Assembly: GCA_965201155.1 (NCBI GenBank)
Contig: OZ241752.1
Location: 719,047 to 783,046 of the forward strand
Direction of reading: 5' to 3'
Length of the DNA: 64,000 nucleotides
Origin: Alphaproteobacteria bacterium
GTDB lineage: Bacteria; Pseudomonadota; Alphaproteobacteria; UBA7887
Shown here: positions 8,925 to 54,883 of the stretch, piece by piece
How positions within the stretch are numbered: position 1 is the stretch's first letter
How the letters are laid out: every line of letters begins with the position of its first letter
Position numbers and translations under genes: made by a program
Notes under the pieces: generated by a model
Databases searched by the model: none
What the model was told of the DNA's origin: nothing
The model's input: only the letters and a program-made list of their open reading frames with translations

Positions 8925-11178
8925 GGGCGGCGAAGGTGGCGAAATTGACGATATCGGCGACAGTCGCGCCGAGCGGCACGATCTGCACCGGCTTTTCCAT
9001 GCCCATCAACAGCGGCCCCAGGACCGTGCCGCCGCCGAGTTCCTGAAGCAGTTTGGTGGAAATGTTGGCGCTGTGGAGGGCGGGCATCACCAGCACGTTG
9101 GCCGGACCCGACAGGCGGCAGAACGGATAGAGTTCGCGAAGGTCCGTGTTGAGCGCCACATCGGCGGCGATTTCGCCGTCATATTCAAAATCGACGCCGC
9201 GCTGGTCGAGCAGCTCGATAGCTTCGCGCACACGGACCCCGCGCTCGCGCAGCGGGTTGCCATAGGTGGAGAAAGACAACAGGGCGACGCGGGGTTCGTG
9301 CCCCATCTCGCGCGCCTTGGCGGCGCTTTGGCAAGCAATATCCGCCAGTTCTGCCGGCGTCGGCAGTTCCGTCACCGTGGAATCCGCAATAAACACGGTC
9401 CGGTCACGCATCACGGCAATGGAAAGGCCGAGACGCATTTCACCGCGGCGCGGATCGAGCACACGGCTGATTTCCTCCAGCGCCACATAGTAGCTGCGGG
9501 TAATGCCTGTCACCATGCCGTCAGCATGGCCATGTGCTACCATGCAGGCGCCGAACACATTGCGGTCCTGGTTCACCATGCGCTGGCAATCGCGGTGAAG
9601 ATATCCTTCACGCTGCAAGCGGGCATAGAGAAAGTCGGTGTAGTCCGTGTTTCGCTTGCTGAGCCGCGCATTGTGAATTTCGAGGCCCGGTGTTTCACGC
9701 AAGCCGATAGCCGCCATGGTTTCGTGAATGCGGTGCTCCCGCCCGATCAGCAAGGAAGTGCCGAAGCCGTTGGCGCTCCATTGAAGCGCGGCGCGGATGA
9801 CCTTTTCCTCCTCACCCTCGGCGAAAACGAGCCGCATGGGGTTGGCATGAACCTGCGCCTGAATGCGGTGCATGCTGGCGGCGGTGGGGTCGAGACGGGC
9901 CTCAAGCTCATGCTGGTACTGGTCAAAGTCGGTGATGGGGCGGCCGGCGACGCCGCTGTCCATCGCCGCGCGCGCCACCGCCATCGGCACACGTGAAATG
10001 AGGCGCGGGTCGAACGGTTTGGGGATGATGTAATCAGGGCCGTACTGGAGTCTCTGCGCGCCGTAGGCGTTGGCGACCTCGTCGGGCACATCCTCGCGCG
10101 CCAGTTCTGCAAGGGCATAGGCCGCGGCCACCTTCATGGCGTCGTTTATGGTGGTCGCGCGAACATCGAGCGCGCCGCGAAAGATATAGGGAAACCCCAG
10201 CACGTTGTTGACCTGATTGGGGTAGTCGGAGCGCCCGGTGGCCATGATGGCGTCGCCGCGCACGGCGGCAACCGCTTCCGGCGTGATTTCGGGGTCGGGG
10301 TTGGCCATGGCGAAAATGACGGGCCGCGCCGACATGGACCGCACCATGTCCGCTGTTACCGCATTCCTGACCGACAGGCCGAAAAATACGTCCGCGCCAG
10401 CCACCGCTTCTTCCAGGGTGCGCAGCGGGGTATCGACGGCATGAGCGGACTTCCACTGGTTCATGCCGGCTTCGCGGCCCTGATAGACGACCCCGCGCGT
10501 GTCACAGAGAATGGCGTGGTCGTGAGGCAGGCCCATCTGCTTGAGAAGTTCGAGGCAGGCTATGCCGGCGGCGCCGGCGCCGTTGCACACCACACGCGCC
10601 TCCGCGAGGCCTCGCCCGGTAAGATGCAGGGCGTTGACGAGACCGGCGGCGGCAATGATTGCGGTGCCGTGCTGGTCGTCGTGAAACACGGGCACATCCA
10701 GCGTTTCGCGCAGGCGCTGCTCGATGATGAAGCATTCCGGCGCCTTGATGTCCTCAAGGTTGATCCCGCCCCAGCTCTTGCCGAGAAACCGCACGCAATT
10801 GACGAATTCGTCGACATCTTCGGTATCGACTTCGAGGTCTATGCCGTCAATATCGGCGAAGCGCTTGAACAGGACCGCCTTCCCTTCCATGACCGGCTTG
10901 GACGGCAGGGCTCCCAGATTGCCGAGACCGAGGACAGCGGTGCCGTTGGAAATCACGGCAACGATATTGCCGCGCGAAGTGTAATCGTAGGAGACTTCCG
11001 GCGCTTTCTCGATTTCCAGACAGGGCGCGGCAACGCCGGGAGAATAGGCGAGCGACAGGTCATGCGCCGTGGTCAGCGGCTTGGTCGCCTGAATCTCGAT
11101 TTTCCCGGGTTTGCCGGCGGCATGAAACGCCAAGGCGTCGGCGTCGGTGACTTGCACGGAGACGGATGGTCTGGGCAT
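8887..11178 (-). CDS. maeB: NADP-dependent malic enzyme: malic enzyme domain fused to a phosphotransacetylase-like domain
   Basis: 763 aa. The N-terminal malic enzyme NAD(P)-binding region and the C-terminal PTA-like domain match the characteristic MaeB architecture. Confidence 0.9.
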   Translation of the reverse strand: MPRPSVSVQVTDADALAFHAAGKPGKIEIQATKPLTTAHDLSLAYSPGVAAPCLEIEKAPEVSYDYTSRGNIVAVISNGTAVLGLGNLGALPSKPVMEGKAVLFKRFADIDGIDLEVDTEDVDEFVNCVRFLGKSWGGINLEDIKAPECFIIEQRLRETLDVPVFHDDQHGTAIIAAAGLVNALHLTGRGLAEARVVCNGAGAAGIACLELLKQMGLPHDHAILCDTRGVVYQGREAGMNQWKSAHAVDTPLRTLEEAVAGADVFFGLSVRNAVTADMVRSMSARPVIFAMANPDPEITPEAVAAVRGDAIMATGRSDYPNQVNNVLGFPYIFRGALDVRATTINDAMKVAAAYALAELAREDVPDEVANAYGAQRLQYGPDYIIPKPFDPRLISRVPMAVARAAMDSGVAGRPITDFDQYQHELEARLDPTAASMHRIQAQVHANPMRLVFAEGEEEKVIRAALQWSANGFGTSLLIGREHRIHETMAAIGLRETPGLEIHNARLSKRNTDYTDFLYARLQREGYLHRDCQRMVNQDRNVFGACMVAHGHADGMVTGITRSYYVALEEISRVLDPRRGEMRLGLSIAVMRDRTVFIADSTVTELPTPAELADIACQSAAKAREMGHEPRVALLSFSTYGNPLRERGVRVREAIELLDQRGVDFEYDGEIAADVALNTDLRELYPFCRLSGPANVLVMPALHSANISTKLLQELGGGTVLGPLLMGMEKPVQIVPLGATVADIVNFATFAAHEAIRNRARAPA

Positions 11179-38679: not shown

Positions 38680-38709
<30 letters not shown>
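37762..38709 (+). CDS. periplasmic binding protein, probably ABC type 2 (iron-siderophore/cobalamin-like), orphan
   Basis: 315 aa with a PBP-like two-lobe pattern. No cognate permease or ATPase is nearby. The 3' end overlaps tRNA-Arg on the opposite strand by about 30 nt, so the true stop is uncertain. Confidence 0.45.
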
Positions 38710-38756
<47 letters not shown>

Positions 38757-38805
38757 GCGTGCCGCACTCTATCAGGTTGCGCAGAGGGCGGCAAAGCGGG
38801 CGGCG

Positions 38806-41140
38806 TCAGTCGGCGCCGGCAGCGACCTTGCCACTGTCCCCGTCGGCGCTGTCCGCATCGTCGGGCGGCGGGTCCGCTGGGGTGATATCGAACGCAGCCT
38901 TTCCTTCCTCGACGCGCACCTTCACATGGCCGCCCTGTGTCAGGCTGCCGAACAACAGGGCTTCGGCCAGGGGCTTCTTGATGTGCTCCTGAATGACGCG
39001 CGCCAGGGGGCGTGCGCCGTACAGCCTGTCATAGCCCTTTTCCGCAAGCCAGCGGCGCGCATCGTCGGTGAGTTCGATAGTGACGGCGCGGTCGGCCAGC
39101 TGGGCCTCAAGCTGGACAATGAACTTGTCGACCACGCGATGCACGATTTCCGGCGGCAGATTGGAAAAGCCGATAATCGCGTCGAGCCGGTTGCGGAACT
39201 CCGGTGTGAACATCCGGTCGATGACTTCGCGGTCATCGCCGGTGCGCGCCTCGCGTCCAAAGCCGATTGCCGGCTTGGCAAGTTCGGACGCGCCGGCATT
39301 GGTCGTCATGATGAGGATGACATTGCGGAAATCCACCGATTTTCCGTTGTGGTCGGTGAGCTTTCCGTGGTCCATCACCTGCAGGAGTATGTTGAACAGG
39401 TCGGGATGCGCCTTTTCGATTTCATCGAGCAGGAGCACAGCGTGCGGGTGCTGGTCGATGGCGTCGGTGAGGAGCCCGCCCTGATCGAAGCCGACATAGC
39501 CCGGCGGCGCGCCAATGAGCCGCGAAACAGTATGGCGCTCCATATATTCGGACATGTCGAAGCGGGTGAGTTCAATCCCCATGATCGCAGCGAGTTGGCG
39601 TGCGACTTCCGTCTTGCCGACACCCGTGGGGCCGGAAAACAGGTAGTTGCCGATCGGCTTTTCCGGTTCGCGCAAGCCGGCGCGGGCCAGCTTGATGGCG
39701 CCGGTAAGCGTCTCGATGGCTGAATCCTGCCCGAACACGACGGTTTTCAGACTGGTTTCCAGCGAAGAAAGCATGGCCTTGTCGTCACGGCTGACGCTCT
39801 TCGGGGGAATGCGGGCGATCTTCGCGACGATGCGTTCGATTTCATCTTCGTTGATGGTGGTCTTGCGGCGGTCTTCGGGCAGCAATACCTGGGCAGCGCC
39901 GACTTCGTCGATGACATCGATCGCCTTGTCGGGCAATTTCCGGTCGCCGATATAACGCGCCGACAGCTTGACCGCGGAACGCAGGGCGTCGTCGGTATAT
40001 TCCACCCGGTGATATTCCTCGTAATAGGGCTTGAGGCCCTCGAGAATCTTCACGGCATCGTCGATGGACGGCTCGTCTATGTCGATTTTCTGGAAGCGGC
40101 GAACGAGCGCGCGGTCTTTTTCGAAGTAGTTTCGATATTCCTTGTATGTGGTCGACCCCATGCAGCGCAGGCTGCCGTTTTGCAGGGCGGGCTTGAGCAG
40201 ATTGGAAGCGTCCATGGCGCCGCCGGAGGTGGCGCCCGCGCCGATCACCGTGTGAATTTCATCGACGAACAGGATGGCGCCGTCATGCTGTTCCAGTTCG
40301 GCGAGCACGGCCTTCACTCGCTCCTCGAAATCGCCGCGATAGCGTGTGCCGGCAAGCAGCGAACGAACCCATGTCGAGGGCAAATATGACAGCGTTGTCG
40401 AGGACATCCGGCACTTCGCCGTCAACGATGCGCTTGGCGAGACCTTCGGCAATGGCAGTCTTGCCAACCCCCGGGTCGCCGACAAACAGCGGATTGTTCT
40501 TGGTGCGCCGGCATAATATCTGCACCGTGCGCTCCACTTCGTCGCCGCGGCCGATAAGCGGATCGATGCGCCCGTCGCGTGCTTTCTGGTTGAGGTCGAC
40601 GCAATAGGCTTCGAGGGCCGCCTGCCCCTGCTTGGCGTTTTTCTCGTCCTCCTGTTCGGCGCCTTCCTTGTTGGCGCCTGAAGGGGTGCGCGAGTCGGAC
40701 ATGCCGGGCCGCTTGGCGACGCCGTGGCTGATATAGCTCACGGCATCGAGCCGGGTCATGTCCTGCTGCTGCATGAAATACACGGCGTGCGATTCGCGTT
40801 CCGAGAAGATCGCGACAAGCACATTGGCGCCTGTAACTTCCTGGCGGCCGGAGTTCTGCACATGGTGCACTGCGCGCTGGATGACCCGCTGGAAACTTGC
40901 GGTGGGGCGGGCATCGGAGGTCGGTTCGGGAAGCAGGACCGACCCGTCCTCATCGAGAAAATCCTCAAGAGCGGCGCGCAACTTGTCGATGTCGACATTG
41001 CAGGCGCGCAATACGGCGACCGAGTCCTGATCTTCGGTGAGCGACAGCAGCAGATGTTCGAGCGTTGCGAACTCGTGCCCGCGCGCATTGGCGTGAGCAA
41101 GTGCGCGATGCAGCGATTCTTCCAGCGTTTTGGACAACAT
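38806..41140 (-). pseudogene. clpA: ATP-dependent Clp protease ATP-binding subunit ClpA, interrupted by a +4 frameshift (tandem TTCG duplication at about 40360-40367)
   Basis: Two ORFs (40283..41140 N-terminal, 38806..40485 C-terminal) together encode a complete ClpA: N-domain, AAA+ D1 with [10 protein letters not shown]2 with GPTGVGKTE. On the coding strand the junction reads ggTTCGTTCGctg, which breaks the conserved [18 protein letters not shown]. Confidence 0.6.
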
Positions 41141-41156
41141 GGCTCGGCTCTCCGGA

Positions 41157-41486
41157 TCAATCTTTTTCGAGCGTGCACTGAAGCGGATGCTGGTTCTGCT
41201 TCGCGAAATCCATCACCTGCGTCACCTTGCTTTCAGCAACTTCATAGGAATATACGCCGCAGATGCCGACACCGCGCCGGTGCACATGCAGCATGATGCG
41301 GGTTGCCTCCTCGCGCGACTTGCGAAAAAACCGCTCCAGCACGTACACGACGAACTCCATGGGCGTGTAGTCGTCATTGAGTAGCAACACCTTGTACATA
41401 GAGGGTTTCTTGGTGCGAGGCTTGGTTCGCGTCACGGTGCCCACATGGAGGCCGCCGCCGTCGCGATCGTCGTCGTCGTCCGCCAT
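41157..41486 (-). CDS. clpS: ATP-dependent Clp protease adaptor ClpS
   Basis: 109 aa. Acidic N-terminus (MADDDDD) followed by the ClpS core [24 protein letters not shown]. Immediately upstream of clpA. Confidence 0.9.
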
Positions 41487-41955
41487 TGCGGTGCGCCGTC
41501 GGGCTGGAAGGGGGTGAGGCATCGCTATCACACCCTCAAGACGGCCTCTCGTCTGACGGACTGCCGCGTCCTGCATCTCTGCGCTGCCTCTCTGCCGGCA
41601 CGGTCGGTTGCCTGTCATGATAGCCCATTCCCGCCCGCCGCATAACCCGCGCCTTGCGGCGCGCCAAGTCCACAGGAAGCGGGATTTGCGAGCGTGCCGG
41701 CTGTCGTCGCACGAAGCCACCTAAATTCCGGTAATGCATCGGGGCGCGAGAGACGAGCCATACAGGCTACACAACGGCCAGTTAGTGCTATAGGCCTTCC
41801 GCCATTCCGTGGCCCGGTTCCGGGTACTCGCATTACCAATGCGCCGACCGACCGAACGCTGGTCACATAACCGCATTCATCTTCCGATGGTTTGAACGAT
41901 CAGCAAGCAAGAGCGAAGCGTTCCTAGATGGGAGGTTCACATACCTCAAATTCAC

Positions 41956-42149
41956 TCAACGATCAGCCAAACGTCGCAATTCAGCTTGATACCGAGATAT
42001 CAAGACATTGATCGGCTCCGCGCGCTTAAAGAATGTTTGAGAGTCAACACCGTCCTCGGCGGTCAGTTTCGCAGCATTTCTTATCGTTTTGATAGCCCCT
42101 TTTCCCACTTGATTAGTCCAGTTTGGGAAACCCACCTGCGCGACCTTAA
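41956..42149 (-). pseudogene. Fic/Doc-family protein, displaced 3' portion (last 63 codons)
   Basis: Removing the IS and one TTAA copy joins ...EEVGVK to VAQVGFPNW... in a single frame, giving a 296-aa ORF that ends at 41956. Confidence 0.7.
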
Positions 42150-43432
42150 GGGAGGCTCTCAAAATCGCCTACTTTTCTCATTTATGTTGTATAATCCGGG
42201 TTGTTGTCTCGGGAGGCGGATTTGATGGGCATGCCGGGTTTTTTCGATCTTGAAGAACGGTTCGCAAAGCTTGACGGATTGGGCGATCCGTTGGCGAAGC
42301 TGTCCGGTTCTGTGAACTGGGAAGGGTTTCGCCCGGCGCTGGACGCGGCACTGTCGAAGCCGCGCAAGAGCAATGCCGGTCGCAGGGAATACGACCGGGT
42401 TCTCATGTTCCGGGTTCTGGTCTTGCAGCAAATGTACAACCTGAGCGACGACCAGACAGAGTTCCAGATCCGGGACCGCTATTCGTTCGCCCGGTTCCTG
42501 GGGCTGCATCCCGAGGATACGGTGCCCGATGCAAAGACCATCTGGCGGTTTCGGGAGAACCTGAAACTCGCGGAGGCGTTTGACAGCCTGTTTTCGGAAC
42601 TGTCCTCGCAGATCGAGGACCAGGGCTATGTGGCGCGCAGGGGACAGATCGTGGATGCGAGCTTTGTGAAGGCGCCGCGTCAACGCAACAGCCGCGACGA
42701 GAACGCACAGGTGAAGGCGGGGAAGGTTCCGTCCGAATGGTCGCAGAAGAAGCGTCGTCACAAGGACACCGACGCACGCTGGACGCGCAAGAGAAATGAA
42801 ACCCATTACGGATACAAGAACCACATCAGCGTGGACCGTGCGTATCGTCTTGTCCGTCGCTGGGAGGCGAGCGATGCGGCGTGTCACGACAGCAAGATGT
42901 TCGAACAGGTGCTTGATGAGACGAATACCAGTGGCGCTGTCTGGGCCGACAGTGCCTACAGCAGTCGCCACCATGAGGCGTTGCTGGCCGAACGAGGCTG
43001 GCGCAGCCACATTCACCGCAAGGGGCATCGCAACCGCCCCTTGCCTGTGCGCTCCCAGGAAGCCAACCGCAAGCGTTCGAAGGTGCGCGCGGTCGTCGAA
43101 CATGTCTTTGCTCAACACGAAGCGATGGGCGGCAAGCGGGTCAGGACTATCGGCATGGTCCGGGCACGCTTCAAGATCGGCATGATGAACCTGGTGTACA
43201 ACCTGCGCCGGCTTGTCTGGCTGCGGGCGAACCACCGGCCCCTCTGCTGCGACAGGGTTCAATAGAATGCCGAACACGGGGGGCCTATGTGCCCTGTGAA
43301 CCGTTTCAGGCTCTCCAACCGCTGTCGGGAACCGTTTTCCCCACCTGATCCGTAGTTCCACCGACTCTTTCATCCCCACAAAACCGACAAATCAACCAAG
43401 GAAAACAAGAAATCAAATTACGAGAGCCTCCC
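42150..43432 (+). mobile_element. IS5-family insertion sequence (about 1283 bp) with terminal inverted repeats GGGAGGCTCTC and a 4-bp TTAA target-site duplication
   Basis: Left end GGGAGGCTCTC at 42150-42160, right end GAGAGCCTCCC at 43422-43432. Flanking direct repeats TTAA at 42146-42149 and 43433-43436, consistent with IS5 insertion into YTAR targets. A single transposase ORF lies inside. Confidence 0.85.
42201..43265 (+). CDS. IS5-family DDE transposase
   Basis: 354-aa ORF with an N-terminal DUF772-like region (FRVLVLQQMYNLSDDQTE) and a DDE domain. The likely start is MGMPGFF at 42225. Confidence 0.85.
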   Translation: MLSREADLMGMPGFFDLEERFAKLDGLGDPLAKLSGSVNWEGFRPALDAALSKPRKSNAGRREYDRVLMFRVLVLQQMYNLSDDQTEFQIRDRYSFARFLGLHPEDTVPDAKTIWRFRENLKLAEAFDSLFSELSSQIEDQGYVARRGQIVDASFVKAPRQRNSRDENAQVKAGKVPSEWSQKKRRHKDTDARWTRKRNETHYGYKNHISVDRAYRLVRRWEASDAACHDSKMFEQVLDETNTSGAVWADSAYSSRHHEALLAERGWRSHIHRKGHRNRPLPVRSQEANRKRSKVRAVVEHVFAQHEAMGGKRVRTIGMVRARFKIGMMNLVYNLRRLVWLRANHRPLCCDRVQ

Positions 43433-44133
43433 TTAACACCAACTTCTTCCTTTTCACCCAATATACCAAACACTTTTCGCCGTTCTTCTATTCGCACCAG
43501 ATCAATTGTATTTCCTCTAGGATTTTGAAGATCATAGCCGAACGAGTTCAATATAGTTTTTAGTTCTCTAAAAGTGACCGTGTAGTATTTTTTATCTAAC
43601 TTTCGCGTATGCTTTTTCAAGAAATAGGATATATAATTGACTTGAGCATCAGCTTTATCTGAGCACTTTCGCTCTAATTCTTGATAACGCCTGGATTTAC
43701 GGAAATTACCTTTGGCCACATCTACCGCAAAATCCTCTAACTCTCTGTGGCCTATTATCGGAACTAAGTTTAACTTTTGAAGATGATAAACTAACGACAA
43801 AAAAGCCGTTCTCTTGTTAGCGTCGTAAAATGGATGATCTTTAATCAAACCAAAAAATAACGTTGCGCAGATATCCCAATTGGACTCCCATTTTCGTCTT
43901 CCGGCGAACATAACATGTTGACGATGAAGTGCAGAATGAAGAAGATTCATGTCCTTGGGTCCGATACCGCCCAGCCCACGTCCTCGAGCAAAGAAGTGAT
44001 CAGCAATCAAGTAGTGCGCTTTTAGCACATCCTTTATTCCAAGATAACCCGGCCCAGAATAGGGATCTTCATCGTCGAGTGATGCCAAAGATGATTGATA
44101 GGATATCCGAATTGGCTCAGCTAAGTACTGCAC
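43433..44133 (-). pseudogene. Fic/Doc (Fido)-family protein, 5' portion (codons 1 to about 233), truncated by the IS5 insertion
   Basis: Doc-type active-site motif HPFYDANKR (HxFx[D/N][A/G]NKR). About 45% GC, against about 65% for the window. The frame continues into the IS end. Confidence 0.75.
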
Positions 44134-44222
44134 GCTGTCTCTTCCCTCATTCTCGTACCAACCGGCTAGGCGGTGAATTCAACCGCAAGCGCAATAATCT
44201 GGGGGCCTTCGTCGAGTTGTCT

Positions 44223-44558
44223 TCAGGGTGATGCGGTGTGCAGCAATCGCCGCATGGCCGTGTCAAAGCTGTAGACGCCACCCAGCGATTCACTGGAGTG
44301 CGATGCGGCGCGCAATGCCTTGAACACGATCAGCGCATCGGTGAAGTCGGTCCCATCTGCCGGCACGGCATTCCGGTACGCTTGCAGGGCGTGCCACACA
44401 ACCTGTTCATCCTCGAAACGAATATTGGTGTCGTTGAACAGCCCTTCAAGAACCCTCACAAGTTCTGCTTTGGTCAGCCGATATTTGCGCCCGGCGAGAG
44501 TCCATACAGCTTCCGCCAGCACAACATCGGTGATCACCACGGTCCCTGCAGCATCCAT
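44223..44558 (-). CDS. PIN-domain (VapC-like) toxin
   Basis: 111 aa with PIN acidic residues: N-terminal VVITDVV (first Asp), middle RFEDEQ, and C-terminal DFTDALIV plus FDTA. 89 bp upstream of the Fic/Doc gene on the same strand. Confidence 0.65.
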   Translation of the reverse strand: MDAAGTVVITDVVLAEAVWTLAGRKYRLTKAELVRVLEGLFNDTNIRFEDEQVVWHALQAYRNAVPADGTDFTDALIVFKALRAASHSSESLGGVYSFDTAMRRLLHTASP

Positions 44559-45162
44559 GACAGAGTCCGCACGCGCCGCCTGAGCCTCGTCATCATGCAG
44601 CAGTTAGCGGAGCAGAACATTGCTATCCACGACGATCAAGGCGTCGACCCGTCAAGAGCATCCTGCGAGGAATCCTCGTCGGCAATTGCAGTGTCGCCGG
44701 CTATGTTCCGAAGGATCCCCTTGGCCGCGCCGGCAGTCTTCGGCACAATGGTAATTCGACCTTCGGCGACAAAGCTGCGGTATTCGCTCCCCGGCTCGAT
44801 CCCGACTTCCCTGTACTGATTGATGGGGGGAGGGTGATCTGGCGTTTTGCGCGCGCTCGCGGCATCGGATGGTCCTTCCCGGCATGGCGGGCTCGGGTTT
44901 GCAATGCCATTTTCTTTACCATTCCCCAAATTGCCGCGAGGCCAGTCCGCCCCGGCGAAACAGCACAATCGCGCATAGCACGCCGGATTGGCGGCCTTGC
45001 CGGGGTCGGGAGAGAGGCGCTGGGAAAACAGGCGGCGGCCCTGCGCCGGGGAGATGCATAAAGTATTGAAAGAATGAACTGTTTCGGACGGTATGTCGGG
45101 CGGGGATTTTGTGCTTGTCAGGTTTTGAATTTCATGATAGCCTAGTGTCAGAACTTCACGGG

Positions 45163-45196
45163 GCCTCTTCACGGGGCCTCTTCACGTATTAAGAGT
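45163..45196 (+). repeat. tandem 13-bp direct repeat (CTTCACGGGGCCT, 2.5 copies) in the 5' leader of the lipoprotein gene
   Basis: The sequence reads cttcacggggcctcttcacggggcctcttcacg. An imperfect hairpin agaggcctcgtaagaggtctct follows at 45207-45228. Confidence 0.8.
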
Positions 45197-45262
45197 AGAG
45201 GCCTCGTAAGAGGTCTCTCACTGGAGGCTCCCCAACCGAATCATTATGGGGGTCCTCCATCA

Positions 45263-46948
45263 ATGACACTTCCAAGAAGCTCTCTCGCGGTCATGTTGGC
45301 CGCGCTTGTTGCGGCGGGCTGCAGCGATAGTGATAGCTCGCCCCCTGCCATGCCACAAACTCCGCCTGAAACGCCTGCACCGACGGTCCATAACCTGGAA
45401 CTCCCGGCGGGCGACCTTGGCTCGCTTGCCGCCGGTATGCTGATGCTTGGCGCTGGCGATACCGCAACCCGCGGCAATGTCGAGTTTTCGTGCCCTGCCG
45501 GTGGAGATGCGTGCAGTATCGAAGTCATGGACAGTGTCGGCACGCTGACAGCGCAGTCGACCGGCGGCATGGCGACGGCCATGATGGTCGAGATGCTGGA
45601 AGATCCGATGCCGACGGTCCATATGCTGGAACTCCCGGCCGGCGACCTCGGCTCGCTTGGCGCCGGTATGCTGATGCTTGGCGCCGGCGATACCGCAACC
45701 CGCGGCAATGTCGAGTTTTCGTGCCCTGCCGGTGGAGATGCGTGCAGTATCGAAGTCACGGACAGCCTCGGCACGCTGACAGCGAAGTCGACCGGCGGCA
45801 TGGCGACGGCCATGATGGTCGAGATGCATGTTGACCCGGATCCGGCGGTCCATAGCGTCATGCTGCCGAGCGGCGCCAAGGCCGGCGGCCTCTCCGCAGG
45901 CAACACCATGGTCACCGCCGGCGCCAGCAGGATGGTCGGCAATTTCGTTTTCACCTGCGCCGCCGGCGCGATGGATTGTAACATTGAAGTGTATGAGAAC
46001 CTCGGAGTTCTCATGGCCAAATCAACCGGCGGCATGGCAACGGTGATACCGTTGTCGATGTACCTGCCGGGCGATACGCCCACATCTCCGGCCACGGCCT
46101 TCGGTTTCCTCAATGACGAGATGCTGCCTGATATCTCGATGTGGAAGATGGACGGCGGCAAGTTGGTGAAGCCGATGACCAAGAAGGAGGCTTTTGCAGC
46201 GGCGATTACGGGCGCCAACGATACAACCACCGGGGTTATGTCTCACATAGAGCTCGACAATGGAAGTCGTGTCGGCGTTAGTGGATTTTCCATGGTAGGA
46301 GATGGCAAAGGCATGGAATATAGCCAGCTAGCCATGGCCGGAGGTTATCTACGTGGCGACACAACGGCAGATTCCTCAGACCTTGGTGGGTTCGACGGAT
46401 ATAGCCTGATGGGTGCCCTGACCACTGGCGCGGACAGAAGTTGGACCGCTGAGGCGCTGGTTTTCTCGGACGGGGCTGAGGACGGAGCCACAAACTTCGG
46501 CATCTGGGCTGCTGATTTTGGAGATGTCCACAGTGCTGACCTCATGAGGGTGGGCGTGTTTGCTCAACTGCCGAGCATGGCCGGGAGTAGCTTTGCGGAT
46601 GATGTTTTAGGCGGCATGGCCACCTACTCCGGTGGAGCCGCTGGCTTTATCGCCGGCAACGACATGAATGATGTCTGGACAGGCGTGGTCGACCTGAATG
46701 CCAATTTCACGCAGGGAAATGAAACTATCGGCGGCATGATCAGAAGTGGCAGCATCCCGACCATTACACTTAGCCCCCAACGCGTTGACGCCATCTCGAC
46801 CATGATGAAAGGTCGCGCGTTGGCCAAAGTGGCGGGTGCGCCGGAAGGAAGATGGAACTGGGCCTTCAGCGATGACGCAGGGCAAGTCGGCGGCACGGTT
46901 GATGTATCCAACATCATCGGTGCTTTCGGCGCGCACCGGAACTACTAG
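45263..46948 (+). CDS. surface lipoprotein with three N-terminal 77-aa Cys-pair modules (two near-identical) and a TbpB/fHbp-like C-terminal beta-barrel domain. Methionine-rich.
   Basis: Signal peptide plus lipobox LVAAGC. Modules carry FSCPAGGDACSIEV and a recurring STGGMATAMMVEM motif. C-terminal pattern GGMATYSGGAAGFIA...VWTGVVDLNANFTQGN.TIGGMI...GRWNWAFS...VGGTVDV.NIIGAFGA matches lipoprotein 8-strand barrel handles. Confidence 0.8.
   Translation: MTLPRSSLAVMLAALVAAGCSDSDSSPPAMPQTPPETPAPTVHNLELPAGDLGSLAAGMLMLGAGDTATRGNVEFSCPAGGDACSIEVMDSVGTLTAQSTGGMATAMMVEMLEDPMPTVHMLELPAGDLGSLGAGMLMLGAGDTATRGNVEFSCPAGGDACSIEVTDSLGTLTAKSTGGMATAMMVEMHVDPDPAVHSVMLPSGAKAGGLSAGNTMVTAGASRMVGNFVFTCAAGAMDCNIEVYENLGVLMAKSTGGMATVIPLSMYLPGDTPTSPATAFGFLNDEMLPDISMWKMDGGKLVKPMTKKEAFAAAITGANDTTTGVMSHIELDNGSRVGVSGFSMVGDGKGMEYSQLAMAGGYLRGDTTADSSDLGGFDGYSLMGALTTGADRSWTAEALVFSDGAEDGATNFGIWAADFGDVHSADLMRVGVFAQLPSMAGSSFADDVLGGMATYSGGAAGFIAGNDMNDVWTGVVDLNANFTQGNETIGGMIRSGSIPTITLSPQRVDAISTMMKGRALAKVAGAPEGRWNWAFSDDAGQVGGTVDVSNIIGAFGAHRNY
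45380..45841 (+). repeat. tandem direct repeat of 2 x 231 bp, about 94% identical, within the lipoprotein coding sequence
   Basis: Copy 1 spans 45380-45610 and copy 2 spans 45611-45841. Both begin ccgacggtccat and both contain ...ggcaatgtcgagttttcgtgccctgccggtggagatgcgtgcagtatcgaagtc... Confidence 0.9.
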
Positions 46949-46999
46949 TCACAAGGTGTTTTGCGTCCCCAGTTGAGCCCGTCTGTCGGACGCAAAGCG

Positions 47000-47026
47000 G
47001 AAGGGCGGCGCCGGTCGCCGCCCTTC
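47000..47026. terminator. GC-rich hairpin between the convergent lipoprotein and osmC genes; possible bidirectional terminator
   Basis: Perfect 11-bp stem GAAGGGCGGCG / CGCCGCCCTTC with a 5-nt loop. There is no clear U-tract. Confidence 0.4.
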
Positions 47027-47054
47027 CTTCGTGAGATGCGCCGGGTTTCGACGG

Positions 47055-47579
<525 letters not shown>

Positions 47580-48747
47580 CCTCTCCTCATGGCCGCCGCA
47601 TTGCGCGCTCTCGCGGTTGCCGCGGCCGAAATTGTTTCCGTGCGGTTCGTCCCTATGGGATATTGCGCAGCGCGGCAATGCTTTTGCAATGCAGCACCTG
47701 CCCGGATGCGCGAAAAGCAAGGAGCCGGCGTCATCCCCCGAATACCGCTGTTCGCCGCACCCGAAGCGGCGAGAAGAGCCTGCGCCGCTGCTGCCAGGCC
47801 AGCTATGCCGCCCAGAGCCGGTCCAGGCCGCGCGGCATCATCGCCCGCGTCGAGGCATCCATCAAGCACGGCGTGTGCACCCGCTTCATCGTCCGCCGGG
47901 AAGCCAACCAATGCCGCCTGTTCCTCCATACCGCAGCCTGTTGGCTGCTCTGGCAACTCAGAAACGCGGCATCAAGGCGCTCGCGTTGGCGAACCGCCAC
48001 ATTCCACACAATCCGCGCCACATTCCTGAAAATCGCGGTGCGGGTTCAGCAGCGGAAATCCCGCATCGCCCTCTGAATGCCGCAGCACACGCCAAACCAG
48101 CCGATGCTCGCGATCATGCTCCAACGCCTTGCCGCTCAAGGGCCTTGACCAACGCGGCAAGTGCCGCAGACCACCTCCAAACACCAACCCACAAACCAAG
48201 ACAAATCAGCCACACAAAACCCGTAAAGCCGGGCGAAAAAACTCGCCTATACGACAACAGAATATCGCGTCATGAATAATGCGGGATTTGGCGGTCGAGG
48301 ACTTTCGGGACCTGTTTGCGGCGCACGGCGTCCCGCAACCAGTTGAGCTATGAGGCGTAGTGGTCCCGCACCATGGCGCTGAATTGGTGGACACCAACGC
48401 GATCATGACCGGCGACATTGCGCTCGACCAAGGTGAAGCTTCGCTGTGGGCGCACGCGCTCAGCCGTGACGATGATTGGAAACTGTGCGGGCCGGACAAA
48501 GCGAGCCCGCGTTGCGGGGTGAGGCTCGGGTTCCGCGATCGATTGGTGTCGCTGGAAGATTTACTGCTGGACATCGGCCATCGGCCCCGGACCGCCCTTC
48601 GTGAAGCCTATACGAGGCGATGGCACAAGAGGGCGCTGGGCAAGATCATATTCGCGGAACGAGGCTGAAATCGTGCGGGACGATGGATTGACGGCGCCTC
48701 AAGTTTAGCATATGCTTGGCATATGTATAGGCCCACGTGAGCTAGCC

Positions 48748-48990
48748 ATGACTTCGCCCCCGCGCCATGCACGCCTCTTTCGCAATGGCCGCAACCAGGC
48801 GGTCCGCATCCCCCGCGAGTTCGAAATGGCGGCCGACGAGGTTCTCATCTACCGGGAAGACCGCCGCCTCGTAATAGAGCCGGTGGAGCGCCCGCCTGCT
48901 TTGGTCGAGGTTCTGTCGGGTCTGGAGCCCCTGGACGAGGATTTCCCGGACATTGCCGACCCGCCTGCGGAGCCCGAAAACCTCCTTTGA
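48748..48990 (+). CDS. vapB: VapB-type antitoxin (AbrB/SpoVT-like)
   Basis: ARLFRNGRNQAVRIPREFEM...DEVLIYREDRRLVIEPV is the typical swapped-hairpin antitoxin sequence. Located immediately upstream of a PIN gene. Confidence 0.8.
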   Translation: MTSPPRHARLFRNGRNQAVRIPREFEMAADEVLIYREDRRLVIEPVERPPALVEVLSGLEPLDEDFPDIADPPAEPENLL

Positions 48991-48993
48991 ACC

Positions 48994-49398
48994 ATGCTCG
49001 ATCTTCAATACTTGCTGGACACGAATGTGGTCTCACATTTGGTCCGCCGGCCGGACAGCCACTTGGCGCACCGGGTTTCCGCTCTGGAGCCTGGAAGTTT
49101 CGGGATCAGCGTGATCGTCGCCGCCGAGCTTCGATACGGCGCAGTCCGTCGCGGCTCGCCTCGCCTGACGGGGCAATTGGAGGCAATACTTTCAGTGATC
49201 GATGTACTTCCCCTGGAGGAGCCGGTGGATCGGCATTATGGCGCGATCCGAACCCATCTGGAGCGCATCGGTCAGCCCATAGGCCACAATGACCTGCTGA
49301 TCGCAGCCCATACGAGAGCCCTTTCGGCAACACTGATCACCAACAATGTCGGCGAATTCCGCCATGTCCCCTCGCTCCTGGTCGAAGACTGGCAATGA
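48994..49398 (+). CDS. vapC: VapC PIN-domain ribonuclease toxin
   Basis: PIN motifs: N-terminal LLDTNVVS, middle AAELRYG and C-terminal NDLLIAAHTRALSATLITNNVGEF. Confidence 0.9.
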   Translation: MLDLQYLLDTNVVSHLVRRPDSHLAHRVSALEPGSFGISVIVAAELRYGAVRRGSPRLTGQLEAILSVIDVLPLEEPVDRHYGAIRTHLERIGQPIGHNDLLIAAHTRALSATLITNNVGEFRHVPSLLVEDWQ

Positions 49399-49452
49399 AA
49401 TTGCGCGTGTCGTTTTGGCATGGGCACAGGACGAATGTGCTGACGGGCGCCG

Positions 49453-49770
49453 TCAGGCGACGGCACTCAGACCGTTCTTCTCGACCAATGTCAGCAATTT
49501 CAGCGAAGCGCCCCGCGGCCGCTTCTCTCCGCGCTCCCACTGGCTCACCAGACCCTTCGTCCCGTTCAGGTGGCGGGCGAACACCGCCTGACTGGCCTTC
49601 TCGCGAAGCCGAAGCGCGCGAATATCCTCCGGCGTCATTTTCTCCACCGGCGTGAGGCACATCTCATCGAACGCCCGCGTGGTTCGCTTCGACATCACAC
49701 CAGCCTCTGCCAGACCGAATGCGGCCTCATGCGCGGCTGCCAGCGCCTCGCTCCTGTATCGCTTCGTCAT
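49453..49770 (-). CDS. XRE-family HTH regulator, HigA-like antitoxin type, solitary
   Basis: 106 aa from MTKRYRSE. HTH region KASQAVFARHLNGTKGLVSQWERGEKRP is typical of HigA antitoxins that pair with RelE/HigB toxins. No toxin ORF is adjacent. Confidence 0.7.
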   Translation of the reverse strand: MTKRYRSEALAAAHEAAFGLAEAGVMSKRTTRAFDEMCLTPVEKMTPEDIRALRLREKASQAVFARHLNGTKGLVSQWERGEKRPRGASLKLLTLVEKNGLSAVA

Positions 49771-49820
49771 CGCATGCCACCTCGATAATCGCTCCTGCCG
49801 CTTCCCGGGAGCAATATCTC

Positions 49821-49849
49821 CAAAAAGCAGGGGCCTCCGAAGAGGCCCC
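49821..49849 (-). terminator. intrinsic-terminator-like hairpin with T-tract, minus-strand sense, lying upstream of the higA-like gene
   Basis: Plus strand reads caaaaagca-GGGGCCTC-cgaa-GAGGCCCC. On the minus strand this is an 8-bp GC stem followed by TGCTTTTTG. Confidence 0.4.
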
Positions 49850-50044
49850 GCGCCCTGCGGTCGAAACCACAAGGGGAATTGCCGACAGGTTCGGTCGCTG
49901 GCAGGCAAAAATCAACCCCGTATTGTGATTCAAGATCGTGTTCTGAGCGGTGGTGCAAGAGCATGGTGTCTGTGGCGGTATCCGGCAGTCAACGCCCCTG
50001 CTCCCGTATCACACCCCGGGGGCACAACCTGATATAAGGCCGGC

Positions 50045-52135
50045 ATGTCGGAAATTGACTCGCGTCCCCGTATTGCCGTCGATATCGGCGGTACGTTTAC
50101 GGATATTGCTCTTGAGGCGCCCGGTGGGCGGTTGTTCACGCGCAAGGTACTGACGACTCCGCAAGCGCCTGCGGATGCGGTTCTGGAGGGTCTGGAAGGG
50201 ATATTGGCCGATGCCGCCATTGCCGCGGGGGATATCGGGCTGATCCTGCATGGCACGACGCTCGCGACCAACGCCATCATCGAACGCGCGGGGGCCTGCA
50301 CCGCGTTGATCGTAACCGAGGGCTTTCGCGATTCGGTCGAAATGGCCTACGAAAACCGTTTCGAGCAATATGACATCAATGTCGACAAGCCCAAACCGCT
50401 GGTGCCGCGCTATTTGCGGCTGCCGGTGCGCGAACGCATGTCCGCCGGCGGACATATCGTCACACCGCTCGACGAGGAGTCGGTCCGCGCCCTGCTTCCG
50501 GTGCTTGAGGACGAGGGGGTCGAGAGTGTCGCCATAGGTCTCATCCACGCCTATGCCAATCCCGGCCACGAGCAGCGTGTGGCGGAGATCATCAGCGCTG
50601 CGCGGCCCGATCTCTGGATCACCGAAGCGGCTGCCGTATGCCCTGAAATCCGCGAATATGAGCGCCTTTCCACGGCCTGCGCAAACGCCTATGTCCGGCC
50701 TCTCATGGCGCGCTATCTCGACGACCTGGCGGCGCGCCTGAAGCAGGCGGGCTTCACTTGCCCCATGCTGCTCATGATGTCGAGCGGCGGCCTGACCACC
50801 CTTGAAACTGCACGGCGCTTCCCGGTGAGGCTGGTCGAGTCCGGCCCTGCGGGCGGCGCCATCATGGCCAGCCGGGTGGCGGTCGAAAGCGCGCTTGCGC
50901 AGGCCCTGTCGTTCGACATGGGCGGGACCACAGCGAAAATCTGCCTGATCGATGACGGCGCCGCCGATACTGCGCGCGGCTTCGAGGTTGCGCGCGCCTA
51001 TCGGTTCAGCAAGGGCAGCGGCCTGCCTTTGCAGATTCCGGTGATTGAAATGGTGGAAATCGGCGCCGGCGGCGGCTCGATCGCCCGCATAGACGCCCTG
51101 GACCGTATTCGCGTCGGACCGGAAAGCGCTGGCGCCGATCCCGGACCCGCCTGCTATGCCCGCGGCGGCAATGACGCCACCGTCACCGACGCCGACCTGC
51201 TGGTCGGAAGGCTGGACCCTGATGACTTCGCCGGCGGTGCATTTCCGCTTGCACCGGAGCGCGCAGCAGCCACCATGAATGCCGCAGTGGCCGCGCCGCG
51301 AGGGTTTGACGCCGTCGATGCGGCCCTGGCCGTCTCCGAAGTGGTGGAGGAGGCCATGGCCAATGCTGCGCGGGTGCATGCGGTGGAACGCGGCAAGGCG
51401 CTGGAAGCGCGAACTCTGATCGCGTTTGGCGGCGCGGCGCCGCTTCATGCGGCGGCGCTGGCGCGCAAACTTGGCATTGGCCGCGTCCTCGTGCCATCCG
51501 GCGCCGGCGTTTGTTCGGCAATCGGCTTCCTGCGTGCACCGATTTCCTATGAAGTGGTGCGCAGCCACTATATGCGCCTTGACTGGTTCGAACCGTCGCG
51601 GGCCAACGCCCTGTTTGCTGAAATGCACGCCGAGGCCGCCGCGGTGGTGCGTCTGGGCGCCCCGGAGGGGCCTCTCCGCGAAAGCCGCTGGATTTCCATG
51701 CGCTATTCGGGCCAGGGGCATGAGATCACCGTGCCCTTGCCGACCACACCGTGGGATGAGGGGGCTGCCGCCGCGATCGAGGCAGCATTCGCCGAGGTCT
51801 ATCGCGAGCATTACGGCCGCACCATTCCGGGGGTCGAGGTGGAAATCATCAACTGGGCGCTGACCCTGAGCACCGAAACGCCGCCGCCGCATCCGCGCCC
51901 GTCCGCACCGCCCGCGGCTGCGCCGCGGCCGGAGGGTGTGCGGTCCGTGCGGTTTGCCGGCGCGGGCGGCAGCGCAGCCTTGGTGGAAGCGCCGGTCTAT
52001 CGGCGCAGCGCCTTGCCGCCCGGCTGCGAGATTAACGGCCCGGCGCTGATTGCCGAGACACAAACTACGACGCTCGTTCCGCCGCGCGGGCGCGCCCGCA
52101 TCGACTCCGCAGGCCATATCGACATGAGCCTGTAA
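50045..52135 (+). CDS. hyuA: hydantoinase/oxoprolinase family, subunit A
   Basis: N-terminal ASKHA motif IAVDIGGTFTDI and length typical of HyuA/OplA. Confidence 0.9.
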   Translation: MSEIDSRPRIAVDIGGTFTDIALEAPGGRLFTRKVLTTPQAPADAVLEGLEGILADAAIAAGDIGLILHGTTLATNAIIERAGACTALIVTEGFRDSVEMAYENRFEQYDINVDKPKPLVPRYLRLPVRERMSAGGHIVTPLDEESVRALLPVLEDEGVESVAIGLIHAYANPGHEQRVAEIISAARPDLWITEAAAVCPEIREYERLSTACANAYVRPLMARYLDDLAARLKQAGFTCPMLLMMSSGGLTTLETARRFPVRLVESGPAGGAIMASRVAVESALAQALSFDMGGTTAKICLIDDGAADTARGFEVARAYRFSKGSGLPLQIPVIEMVEIGAGGGSIARIDALDRIRVGPESAGADPGPACYARGGNDATVTDADLLVGRLDPDDFAGGAFPLAPERAAATMNAAVAAPRGFDAVDAALAVSEVVEEAMANAARVHAVERGKALEARTLIAFGGAAPLHAAALARKLGIGRVLVPSGAGVCSAIGFLRAPISYEVVRSHYMRLDWFEPSRANALFAEMHAEAAAVVRLGAPEGPLRESRWISMRYSGQGHEITVPLPTTPWDEGAAAAIEAAFAEVYREHYGRTIPGVEVEIINWALTLSTETPPPHPRPSAPPAAAPRPEGVRSVRFAGAGGSAALVEAPVYRRSALPPGCEINGPALIAETQTTTLVPPRGRARIDSAGHIDMSL

Positions 52136-52208
52136 CGGGGAAACGGGCCGCGCGGAGCGCCCTTGTCGACGAAACTGCCGGGTTGTTCGATAATCCCGGA
52201 AACTTACC

Positions 52209-53930
52209 ATGCATGCCGGAGGTGTTGCCATGACAGCGAGACCTGAACCAACCGCACTCGACCGCCAGCTCATGTGGGACAGGCTGAACGCGGTGGTGGA
52301 AGAACAGGCGCAGACGTTGATCCGCACGGCGTTCAGCAATACCGTCCGCGAGGCGGGCGACCTTTCCGCCGGGGTGTTTGACCTTGCCGGTAGGATGCTC
52401 GCGCAGGCGGTGACCGGAACGCCCGGCCATGTCAACGCCATGGCGGCGTCGGTGCAGCATTTCATCGACTGCTTTCCGGTGGCGGAGATGAGCCCCGGCG
52501 ATGTCTACATCACCAACGACCCATGGCGGGCCACCGGACATTTGCATGACTTCACGGTGGTGACACCGTGTTTTCGCGGTGAACGCGCAGTGGGTTTCCT
52601 GGCATCGACGGCGCATGTGGTCGATGTCGGCGGGCGCGGTTTCGGGCCGGACGCACGCCAAGTTTATGAAGAAGGCATTTTCGTGCCGATCATGAAGCTG
52701 ATGGATGCCGGCCGCATCGACGAGTCACTGATCCGGCTGGTGCGCGCCAATGTCCGTGAACCGACCCAGCTTGAGGGAGACTTTCATTCGCTCGCCGCGT
52801 GCAATGAGGTGGGCTGCCGCCGCCTGATCGAAATGATGGCGGGTTTCGGACTCGACGATCTCGGCGCTCTTGCCGATTACATCATCGACACTTCGCACCG
52901 CGCCATGCTGCGCCAGATCAGCGCCTTGCCGGCCGGCACATGGCGCTATGCCATGCGAATCGACGGGTATGAAACACCCGTTGATCTGGTTGCCTCCCTG
53001 ACCGTCGGCCCTGACGGCATGGATATCGACTTTGACGGCACCTCGGGCGTATCCGATTTCGGCATCAACGTACCGCTGCCCTATACGCAGGCCTACGCCA
53101 CCTTCGGCGCGCGCTGCATTATCGGATCGGACGTGCCCAACAATGCCGGCTCGTTGGCGGCGGTGCGCGTGACCGCGCCGGAAAATTGCATCCTGAATGC
53201 GCGGCCGCCGCGCGCCGTGGCAGCGCGCCACGCCATCGGCCAGATGCTGCCCGATGTGGTTCTCGGCTGCCTGCATCAGGCAGTGCCGGATATCGGCCCG
53301 GCCGAGGGTACGTCGTGTCTCTACAATTTCGTGCTCTATGGCGGCGGCGGCATAGCCGACGGCCATGGCGCGCACGCCAATGCGACTCCGTTCACTATCA
53401 CGCTGTTTCACAATGGCGGCACCGGCGCGCGCCCGGCGAAGGACGGATTGTCGGCAACGGCGTTTCCATCAGGTGTACGCAACACGCCGGTGGAAATCAA
53501 CGAGGCAATCTCACCCATTTTGGTGAAACGCAAGGAATACCGGACGGATTCCGCCGGCGCCGGCCGCTCGCGCGGCGGTCTGGGGCAGGTGATGGAGATC
53601 ACCAGTCTGGACGGTGCGCCGTTTGCCGTCTCGTCGATGTTTGACCGCGTCCGCTTTCCGCCGCGCGGACGCGCCGGCGGGCGCAACGGCACTGCCGGGC
53701 GCATGACTCTCGCAAGCGGGAAGGAACTGCGCCCCAAGGGCCGCCAGACCGTCCCGGCGGGCGATACCCTGGTCATCGAGATGCCCGGCGGCGGCGGCTA
53801 TGGCGATCCTTCCTCGCGGCCGGCAGCGTTGATCGCCGACGATGTGCGCAACGGTCTGGTGAGCCCTGAGGCAGCCGCCGCACATTACGGCGCCGCCATG
53901 GATTTGAACGAGGAAAATTTGCCCGAATAA
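52209..53930 (+). CDS. hyuB: hydantoinase/oxoprolinase family, subunit B
   Basis: 573 aa of the hydantoinase_B family, immediately downstream of hyuA. Confidence 0.9.
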   Translation: MHAGGVAMTARPEPTALDRQLMWDRLNAVVEEQAQTLIRTAFSNTVREAGDLSAGVFDLAGRMLAQAVTGTPGHVNAMAASVQHFIDCFPVAEMSPGDVYITNDPWRATGHLHDFTVVTPCFRGERAVGFLASTAHVVDVGGRGFGPDARQVYEEGIFVPIMKLMDAGRIDESLIRLVRANVREPTQLEGDFHSLAACNEVGCRRLIEMMAGFGLDDLGALADYIIDTSHRAMLRQISALPAGTWRYAMRIDGYETPVDLVASLTVGPDGMDIDFDGTSGVSDFGINVPLPYTQAYATFGARCIIGSDVPNNAGSLAAVRVTAPENCILNARPPRAVAARHAIGQMLPDVVLGCLHQAVPDIGPAEGTSCLYNFVLYGGGGIADGHGAHANATPFTITLFHNGGTGARPAKDGLSATAFPSGVRNTPVEINEAISPILVKRKEYRTDSAGAGRSRGGLGQVMEITSLDGAPFAVSSMFDRVRFPPRGRAGGRNGTAGRMTLASGKELRPKGRQTVPAGDTLVIEMPGGGGYGDPSSRPAALIADDVRNGLVSPEAAAAHYGAAMDLNEENLPE

Positions 53931-53998: not shown

Positions 53999-54883
53999 TC
54001 AAGTCAGGCGGCTGCGCGCGATCTCGATATATTCCGGGTTGATGTCGATCCCGATGCTGTTTCGGCCTGCGCGCTGCGCAGCGAGACAGGTTGTCCCCGA
54101 TCCTGCGAAGGGGTCGAGCACGGTCTGTCCCTCGGCAGAGAACAGGCGGATCAGGTGCTCGCAGAGCTTGACAGGCTTCGGTGTCAGGTGGCCGTTGAAG
54201 CGGTCCCTGGCCTCTTTCTCGACCGTCATGACGGTTTCCGGCACGCGCGCGGTGAGGCTGTGCCGCGGGTCGATCAGCCCGGTCCCATATGCCAGCCAGT
54301 TATCAACAAAGGTTCCTTCGCGCGGCTTCTGCGCGCAGAGGATTGCCTCGAACTGCGGCCGAAGCTGCGGCGTCCGCCGGCCGTCCAGCGCCTTCAGGGC
54401 GTGGGCCTTCTGATCGTCCGTCACGTCGGCTCTGCGCCGGACGAAATGGTCCATGGTGAACGCCTTGAACTGCGCCTTCCTTGTGAAGCGCCATGCGAAA
54501 GCATCCCGGACCTCGAAGCCGGCATCTTCGACCGCCACGGCGGCCCGATGATAAAGGCGCGGGGCAGCGAACAGCAGCAGAAAGCCTCCGGGTTTCAGCA
54601 CACGCAGCAATTCGGCCGCAATGGGGGCGAGGAACGCCTGAAGATTCTTTGCCTGTTCCCGGTCGAACTTCATACCGACGGGCAGACCGCCGATGACGTC
54701 CGCACATTTCTTCGAGCGTTCTATGTCCGGCGGGCTCCAAGCGTCATCAAGTCGGTCGAGAAAGTATGGCGGGTCCGTCACCACAAGATGAACGCTCCCA
54801 TCCGCCATATCCGCCAGTAGGTCCCGACAATCTCCCGAATGCAATGCGACGCAGGAATGACCCTCGCCTCTGGCGTTGCTCAT
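53999..54883 (-). CDS. beta-class DNA methyltransferase (N6-adenine or N4-cytosine), orphan
   Basis: Motif IV DPPY lies near the N-terminus (VVTDPPYF) and motif I FAGSGTT near the C-terminus. No restriction endonuclease gene is adjacent. Confidence 0.85.
   Translation of the reverse strand: MSNARGEGHSCVALHSGDCRDLLADMADGSVHLVVTDPPYFLDRLDDAWSPPDIERSKKCADVIGGLPVGMKFDREQAKNLQAFLAPIAAELLRVLKPGGFLLLFAAPRLYHRAAVAVEDAGFEVRDAFAWRFTRKAQFKAFTMDHFVRRRADVTDDQKAHALKALDGRRTPQLRPQFEAILCAQKPREGTFVDNWLAYGTGLIDPRHSLTARVPETVMTVEKEARDRFNGHLTPKPVKLCEHLIRLFSAEGQTVLDPFAGSGTTCLAAQRAGRNSIGIDINPEYIEIARSRLT

Follow-up and report, generated by a model that had tools for sequence, protein, structure and literature searches.

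A candidate Slam-type surface lipoprotein with tandem Cys-pair modules in an alphaproteobacterial genome

The cargo proteins of the Slam pathway, or type 11 secretion system (T11SS), have been studied almost only in animal pathogens, in connection with iron and haem piracy, complement evasion and vaccine antigens, and the system is described in the literature as proteobacterial. Here we analyze a gene at positions 45263–46948 (+) of a 64,000-nucleotide stretch from an Alphaproteobacteria bacterium of the lineage UBA7887 (contig OZ241752.1, positions 719,047 to 783,046; hereafter the window). We consider it probable that this gene encodes a Slam/T11SS-type surface lipoprotein of an uncharacterised subfamily. 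Like the known cargo (TbpB, LbpB, fHbp, HpuA, HphA, NHBA and PmSLP), its product has an N-terminal lipobox, a Pro-rich tether and, at the C-terminus, a predicted beta-barrel of eight strands with an end of the GAFGA-x-R/K type. The known cargo proteins are its best structural matches in the PDB and, as with them, genes of its homologs adjoin Slam genes. Unlike them, it fails the curated hidden Markov models (HMMs) for this class, its handle is modeled with a predicted local distance difference test (pLDDT) score below 50, and no Slam or TonB-dependent receptor gene is adjacent to it. Its effector part also differs, being an array of Cys-pair beta modules; it is neither a second lobe of handle and barrel nor a haem clamp, nor does it consist of disordered sequence or alpha-helical repeats. 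The hosts of known Slam cargo are animal-associated, whereas those of this family are environmental lineages of metagenome-assembled genomes (MAGs), belonging to Alpha- and Gammaproteobacteria, Binatia and Nitrospirales.

The C-terminal barrel and its link to Slam

The open reading frame (ORF) is intact and its product is 561 aa long. We compared the protein with the features that define Slam-dependent surface lipoproteins (PMC5449769), beginning with a signal peptide, a lipobox and a lipidated Cys, all of which can be read from its translation: the signal peptide (aa 1–20, 45263–45322, +) is MTLPRSSLAVMLAALVAAG/C, with the lipobox LVAAG/C, Cys20 as the lipidated residue and Ser at +2. The lipoprotein call of an earlier note on this DNA thus holds. 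A Ser/Pro-rich tether, SDSDSSPPAMPQTPPETPA, follows (aa 21–39, 45323–45379, +). In the full-length model its mean pLDDT is 43 for aa 21–30 and 64 for aa 31–40, with aa 18–32 below 50.

At the level of fold, the predicted C-terminus also agrees with Slam cargo. AlphaFold2 placed eight strands within aa 452–559 (pLDDT 60–83), in a terminal region (aa 450–561 with the stop codon, 46610–46948, +) that ends in IIGAFGAHRNY. When the model was compared with PDB structures using Foldseek, the first 41 matches were all Slam cargo: hemophilin (1.6e-4), TbpB, fHbp, HpuA, NHBA, LbpB and PmSLP. The barrel could be superimposed on HpuA (5ee2) with a root-mean-square deviation of 2.8 Å over 119 columns, and on NHBA (5o1r) with 2.6 Å over 120 columns and a TM score of 0.76.

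Sequence comparisons lead to the same class by way of relatives. We found nineteen homologs by direct search and 24 with a profile, nearly all of them lipoproteins that end in a motif of the GAFGA-x-R/K type. Three of 20 homologs pass the Pfam model PF01298 (TbpB_B_D; best 8e-17), and six of 20 pass the NCBIfam model NF041636 (slam_lipo, "Slam-dependent surface lipoprotein"; best 9.5e-15). A profile built from 21 family barrels matched TbpB (3.5e-4) and HpuA (4e-3) among PDB sequences, aligned to the last residue, a significance that is due to the inclusion of more distant family members. A profile of the nearer relatives, compared by hhalign with the PF01298-positive homologs, matched at 88.6% (E = 2.6e-6).

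The strongest contextual evidence is synteny with Slam. Among the 11 loci with genomic context, six (L004, L005, L006/L011, L013, L015 and L016) carry a PF04575 gene (SlipAM/DUF560, often with TPR_Slam) within 10 kb of a family member, a fraction similar to the Slam–lipoprotein adjacency of ∼52% reported previously (PMC5449769). The Slam gene is immediately adjacent in L005, L013, L015 and L016, lies ∼0.6 kb away in L004 and ∼5 kb away on the Candidatus Binatia chromosome (L006/L011). In the Nitrospirales MAG L003, a Slam fragment follows the member. Taken together, the predicted structure, the profile–profile comparison and the Slam synteny of homologs support the TbpB/fHbp-type eight-stranded barrel that the earlier note had proposed for the C-terminus.

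Some of these loci are described here in more detail. The alphaproteobacterial MAG locus L004 (4004–20136) contains at least four family lipoprotein genes around an intact Slam gene (7772–9142) and Slam fragments, with an additional, fifth lipobox ORF. L013 (5368–16055) carries a Porin_4–lipoprotein–Slam cassette twice, in inverted orientation; here a porin, and not a TonB-dependent receptor, may partner the cargo proteins. Outside the Proteobacteria, Slam genes or fragments accompany barrel lipoproteins in L006/L011 (3669–5111 and 10001–11764) and in L003 (9866–11734 and 12901–13098).

We suggest the following route for the protein. As established lipoprotein biology would have it, the precursor would be exported by Sec and then lipidated at Cys20, and, with Ser at +2, would be carried to the outer membrane by the Lol pathway. 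A Slam (DUF560) protein encoded elsewhere in the genome would recognize the C-terminal handle and eight-stranded barrel, and flip the lipoprotein to the cell surface. Between the Pro-rich tether and the barrel, the mature protein would display three six-stranded beta modules of ∼65–77 aa, most plausibly as a rigid, extendable stalk or a ligand-presenting array that forms the "effector" part of the cargo. The only two invariant residues of the module would seal its hairpin loop (C-PAGGxA-C), most likely by forming a disulfide. In this lineage, Met (∼7 per module) would fill variable positions that face outward, giving a soft, thioether-rich surface.

Several results weigh against this reading. 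The protein itself returned nothing from Pfam and NCBIfam (0 matches in either even at E ≤ 10) or from PDB sequences. It passes neither PF01298 nor NF041636, and the match of the C-terminus to PF01298 that the earlier note had put forward as a check is found only in more distant family members, although the structure prediction, its other check, gave the eight strands and the 41 Slam cargo matches described above. The profile of the nearer relatives that can be reached by jackhmmer had no significant match among PDB sequences (HpuA, E = 0.24). The middle region, presumed to be the handle or pedestal (aa 271–449, 46073–46609, +), is homologous only to two other proteins, P0001 and P0003; pLDDT is below 50 over aa 265–449, where few strands are predicted (at 379–418). 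No PF04575 gene was found within the window, nor in the flanks of ∼4–10 kb on each side of the genes for P0001, P0026 and P0011 (L001, L012 and L017). A Slam profile search, among the best 120 of its 2,593 matches, placed none on the contig that carries P0001, P0002 and the VapC of the window. Because the window holds no Slam gene, surface export of this protein is a step that we infer, as we do the disulfide, stalk and ligand roles of its modules.

A recurrent Cys-pair module

The modules lie between the tether and the handle. Tandem Repeats Finder detected a period of 231 bp with 1.9 copies and 95% matches at 45380–45827. Alignment extends this to three units of 77 aa: module 1 (aa 40–116, 45380–45610, +), a Cys-pair beta module with CPAGGDAC and STGGMATAMMVEM; module 2 (aa 117–193, 45611–45841, +); and the diverged module 3 (aa 194–270, 45842–46072, +), with CAAGAMDC and STGGMATVIPLSM. 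Matches to the module HMM span aa 43–111, 120–188 and 197–266. Modules 1 and 2 are identical at 213 of 231 nt and 69 of 77 aa, with perfect runs of 73, 42 and 24 bp and mismatches concentrated at the inter-module linker end. Module 3 shares ∼40%–45% identity with the other copies and is colinear with the sole module of P0003. The arrangement described in the earlier note, two nearly identical 77-aa modules and a third diverged copy, is therefore present, whereas the CPAGGDAC motif that it attributed to every module is exact in modules 1 and 2 only. An assembly artifact is an unlikely source of the repeat, because 18 differences distinguish the two copies and a paralog, P0001, with the same two-module arrangement is present in an independent assembly of a metagenome (L001). 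Module 1 has a pLDDT of ∼90 in the full-length AlphaFold2 model; modeled alone, the module has six strands and a pLDDT of 82.

With the HMM built from the three modules, we counted from one to 19 copies per protein among homologs. At the extreme of this range is P0020, a metagenome protein of 1662 aa with nineteen consecutive Cys-pair modules before its barrel. An exhaustive search of 1.84 billion cluster representatives with a profile made from 54 modules retrieved 785 clusters with E ≤ 1e-3 and 520 with E ≤ 1e-10; a profile search of genome contigs with the module alignment recovered five MAG loci. Among the 172 module proteins listed, 116 have a lipobox and at least 91 a barrel; many of the others have divergent termini of the GxFGG type or are fragments.

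Across ∼650 modules (659 in the co-occurrence test below), aligned over ∼62 match columns, the near-universal residues are only the two Cys of C-x6-C (columns 31 and 38, 100%) and three Gly (columns 19, 54 and 55, 92%–98%). Pro and Asp-Gly are highly conserved at turns, His occupies column 7 in 67% of modules (Gly in the three modules of our protein), and Met occupies columns 56 and 60 in 36% and 35%. All three modules studied here have the two invariant Cys, G19 and G54–G55. The Cys pair most likely closes the module hairpin as a disulfide. No model in Pfam or NCBIfam covers the module, and its predicted structure (pLDDT 82) had no fold match among PDB structures (best E = 1.8). None of the approximately ten catalogued architectures of T11SS cargo contains such modules (PMC12282271). 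Thus, the Cys-pair module is a recurrent, uncurated and undescribed domain.

Some homologs carry a hairpin of the form G-x-Y-x-C-x4-5-C-T-V-T ... W-x-F-x-P-D in the handle that precedes the barrel (P0005, 478–518; P0010, 387–436; P0021, 302–343; P0024, 258–324). When compared with an independent profile, this hairpin bears a weak similarity to the module's second half (independent E-values of 1e-4 to 0.5), and the repeat module may, judging by this resemblance, descend from a handle sub-domain. The handle of the protein studied here lacks a hairpin of the G-x-Y-x-C type.

A 5′ cassette shared among divergent genes

The region upstream of the gene and the beginning of its coding sequence are shared with other family genes. 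The conserved upstream region and 5′ leader (45133–45262, +) belong to a conserved stretch that spans 45133–45275 in the window, 3611–3759 in L001 and 70–206 in L018, the locus of P0003. Over the last 109 nt before the ATG, the sequence matches that upstream of P0001 at all 109 positions, and it is nearly identical to that upstream of P0003. The leader contains a 13-nt tandem repeat, CTTCACGGGGCCT, in 2.5 copies at 45154–45186, with 2.5 copies in L018 and 3.5 in L001. Its predicted RNA fold is highly stable, at −62.6 kcal/mol (z = −6.2), and a second hairpin is predicted just before the start codon; Rfam had no match for it, and a simple scan found no sigma-70-like promoter. The three sequences contain no compensatory changes, so a structured RNA in the leader remains a lead.

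Conservation continues into the gene and then ends. The signal peptides of P0001 and P0003 are nearly identical to that of our protein. The coding DNA is ∼92%–98% identical to that of P0001 up to about +550 and falls to chance level thereafter. In their C-terminal parts, our protein and P0001 are 43% identical, and our protein and P0003, which combines nearly the same leader and signal peptide with one module, are 36% identical overall (handle and barrel). By these comparisons, the gene is a mosaic, in which a cassette of leader, signal peptide and modules 1 and 2 is shared with at least two other genes that have divergent C-termini. The VapC of the window, P0001 and P0002 are all encoded on one 2.93-Mb contig, and at least one of the genes that share the cassette comes from the same or a nearly identical genome.

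The earlier note had read the near-identity of modules 1 and 2 as a very recent duplication. A private event of this kind is too simple, since the pair belongs to the 5′ cassette, which is ∼92%–100% identical in nucleotide sequence in P0001. Indeed, when the four module DNAs (modules 1 and 2 of our gene and of P0001) are compared, position in the array unites the modules at some sites and gene of origin does so at others, so the module pair either arose before the cassette spread or is being homogenized by recombination. Unequal recombination is mechanistically plausible given the 73-bp identical run between the two copies, and the variation in repeat number that the same note had anticipated is borne out across the family, with its 1–19 modules per protein. 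Because the cassette is shared among genes whose handles and barrels are only 36%–43% identical, we suggest that recombination and unequal crossing-over, rather than a single recent duplication, account for the diversification of the family. A scan of metagenomes for close relatives gave one weak match.

These observations bear on a second reading of the locus, which we hold tentatively as possible though not likely: the genes would form a family of variable surface antigens or adhesins, in which the shared 5′ cassette works as an expression site and recombination between paralogs, together with changes in repeat number, varies what is displayed. The 5′ cassette is conserved at ∼97%–100% among three genes whose mature C-terminal parts share only 36%–43% identity; P0002, as called, has no signal peptide and begins inside a module; the leader repeat differs between paralogs (2.5 versus 3.5 copies), as does the number of modules (3, 2, 4 and 1 in our protein, P0001, P0002 and P0003); and the genes lie among insertion sequences (IS), with an IS5 copy 98.5% identical between loci. 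The host, however, is an environmental bacterium under no obvious immune pressure. A regulatory RNA under selection could explain the conservation of the leader equally well, and the start of P0002 may be a gene-calling error. Mycoplasma Vlp and Borrelia Vsp are multigene families of variable lipoproteins. In the Vlp genes, as in ours, the 5′ region and the lipoprotein signal peptide are conserved, while the mature part diverges and contains in-frame tandem repeats that vary in number. Our gene differs from them in having neither homology to Vlp nor demonstrated switching, in repeating a folded 77-aa unit instead of a short peptide, and in its Slam-type barrel.

Methionine content, genomic setting and implications

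The earlier note had also remarked on the abundance of Met, and counting bears this out: Met makes up 41 of 561 residues (7.3%); each module has ∼10%, the C-terminal half 5.5%. Across the 56 likely coding ORFs of the window, this one included, internal Met averages 2.36% and our protein ranks highest (binomial P ∼1e-9). The family is different. Its modules have a median Met content of 2.9% and a 90th percentile of 6.2%, overall values are 3.2% inside modules and 2.3% outside, and only five of the 172 module proteins listed reach 7% Met overall. In our protein, two of the ∼7 Met per module are typical of the family and five occur where the family has variable or polar residues; because these five alternate with conserved hydrophobic core positions, they are probably exposed. 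By this comparison of composition, Met richness is specific to the lineage of our protein.

Could the modules bind a soft metal? It is quite unlikely, in our estimate, that the protein is a surface binder of Cu(I) or Ag(I) through its Met-decorated modules (MLML, STGGMATAMMVEM), perhaps with the Cys pair taking part, or a sink for oxidants through sacrificial Met. Besides the Met content of the modules and of the whole protein, which is the highest among the 56 ORFs of the window, the probable exposure of five of seven Met per module, including M-x-M on one strand, is consistent with such a role. At columns 56 and 60 of the family, Met is more frequent than any other residue, and the two co-occur modestly (odds ratio 2.0); a gene of the OsmC-like peroxidase family (47055–47720) lies next door. 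According to published work, CueO-type proteins recruit Cu(I) through Met-rich domains (PMC11494321). Like our protein, the Met-rich Cu(I) proteins (CusF, CopC/PcoC and the Met-rich domain of CueO) are extracytoplasmic and have MxM or MxxxM clusters. However, neither a conserved Met/His set nor a copper fold or neighborhood was found. A His/Met/Met metal site, considered across modules, had to be rejected: the combination is present in 62 of 659, without conservation or association. The module fold matches none of CusF, CopC and the cupredoxins; none of the genes annotated in the window and homologous loci is a cop, cus or msr gene; and an extracytoplasmic Cys pair that closes a hairpin is more likely a disulfide. 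Since only Cys and Gly are near-universal in the module and Met is lineage-specific, family conservation gives no support to the metal binding that the earlier note had suggested. Within this lineage, metal binding or an oxidant sink is possible, without comparative support; for now, the decoration with methionine stands out as unusual only in terms of composition. We give little credence to the boldest combination of these ideas, in which the module would be a widespread new class of Slam/T11SS effector (including Binatia and Nitrospirales), resurfaced here with Met as a scavenger of Cu(I)/Ag(I) or a shield against oxidants, and expressed from a structured-leader and signal-peptide cassette that paralogs exchange by recombination.

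The gene lies within a stretch of lower GC content (0.48–0.61 versus 0.67–0.70) that starts beside a tRNA-Arg(ccg) gene (38680–38756). Upstream are an IS5-type transposase (42201–43265), Fic/Doc (43306–44133) and a PIN fragment (44223–44558); downstream, beyond the OsmC-like gene, are a VapB/VapC pair (48712–49398) and a helix-turn-helix (HTH) protein (49453–49908). The neighborhood of IS and toxin–antitoxin genes described in the earlier note is thus confirmed, and this stretch (38680–50000), with its IS5, Fic/Doc, PIN/VapBC and HTH genes, resembles a genomic island. A ClpB-like AAA+ chaperone gene at 38806–41140 (−) is split into overlapping ORFs (38806–40485 and 40283–41140), by a frameshift or a sequencing error. 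Between the toxin–antitoxin genes and a type II methyltransferase-like gene (53999–54883) is an 818-aa ORF (50009–52465, −) with coding-like GC content at third codon positions and no match in Pfam or PADLOC. Otherwise, the window consists of ordinary chromosomal sequence that encodes malic enzyme, MutS, a histidine kinase, a Pst permease and a rhodanese.

We judge it improbable that the gene encodes an outer-membrane lipoprotein facing the periplasm, or is a decaying island gene whose barrel is a relic in a genome without a matching Slam: the lack of Slam in the window and near P0001, P0026 and P0011, and the mobile, lower-GC island with its PIN fragment and split ClpB-like gene, are in its favor, but the ORF runs uninterrupted through its 561 codons, the reading frame, lipobox and GAFGA-type end have been retained in three divergent copies, and Slam is often not adjacent to its cargo (∼52% adjacency; PMC5449769).

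As a Slam/T11SS-type surface lipoprotein, the reading that we prefer, the protein encoded here would represent a cargo subfamily from soil and water bacteria, with an effector made of an uncurated and structurally unmatched repeat domain. If confirmed, this would add a new architecture to the catalog of T11SS cargo and extend the system to non-proteobacterial lineages. The locus would also offer a tractable case for learning what environmental bacteria display by the Slam pathway and how recombining paralogs reuse a conserved export cassette.

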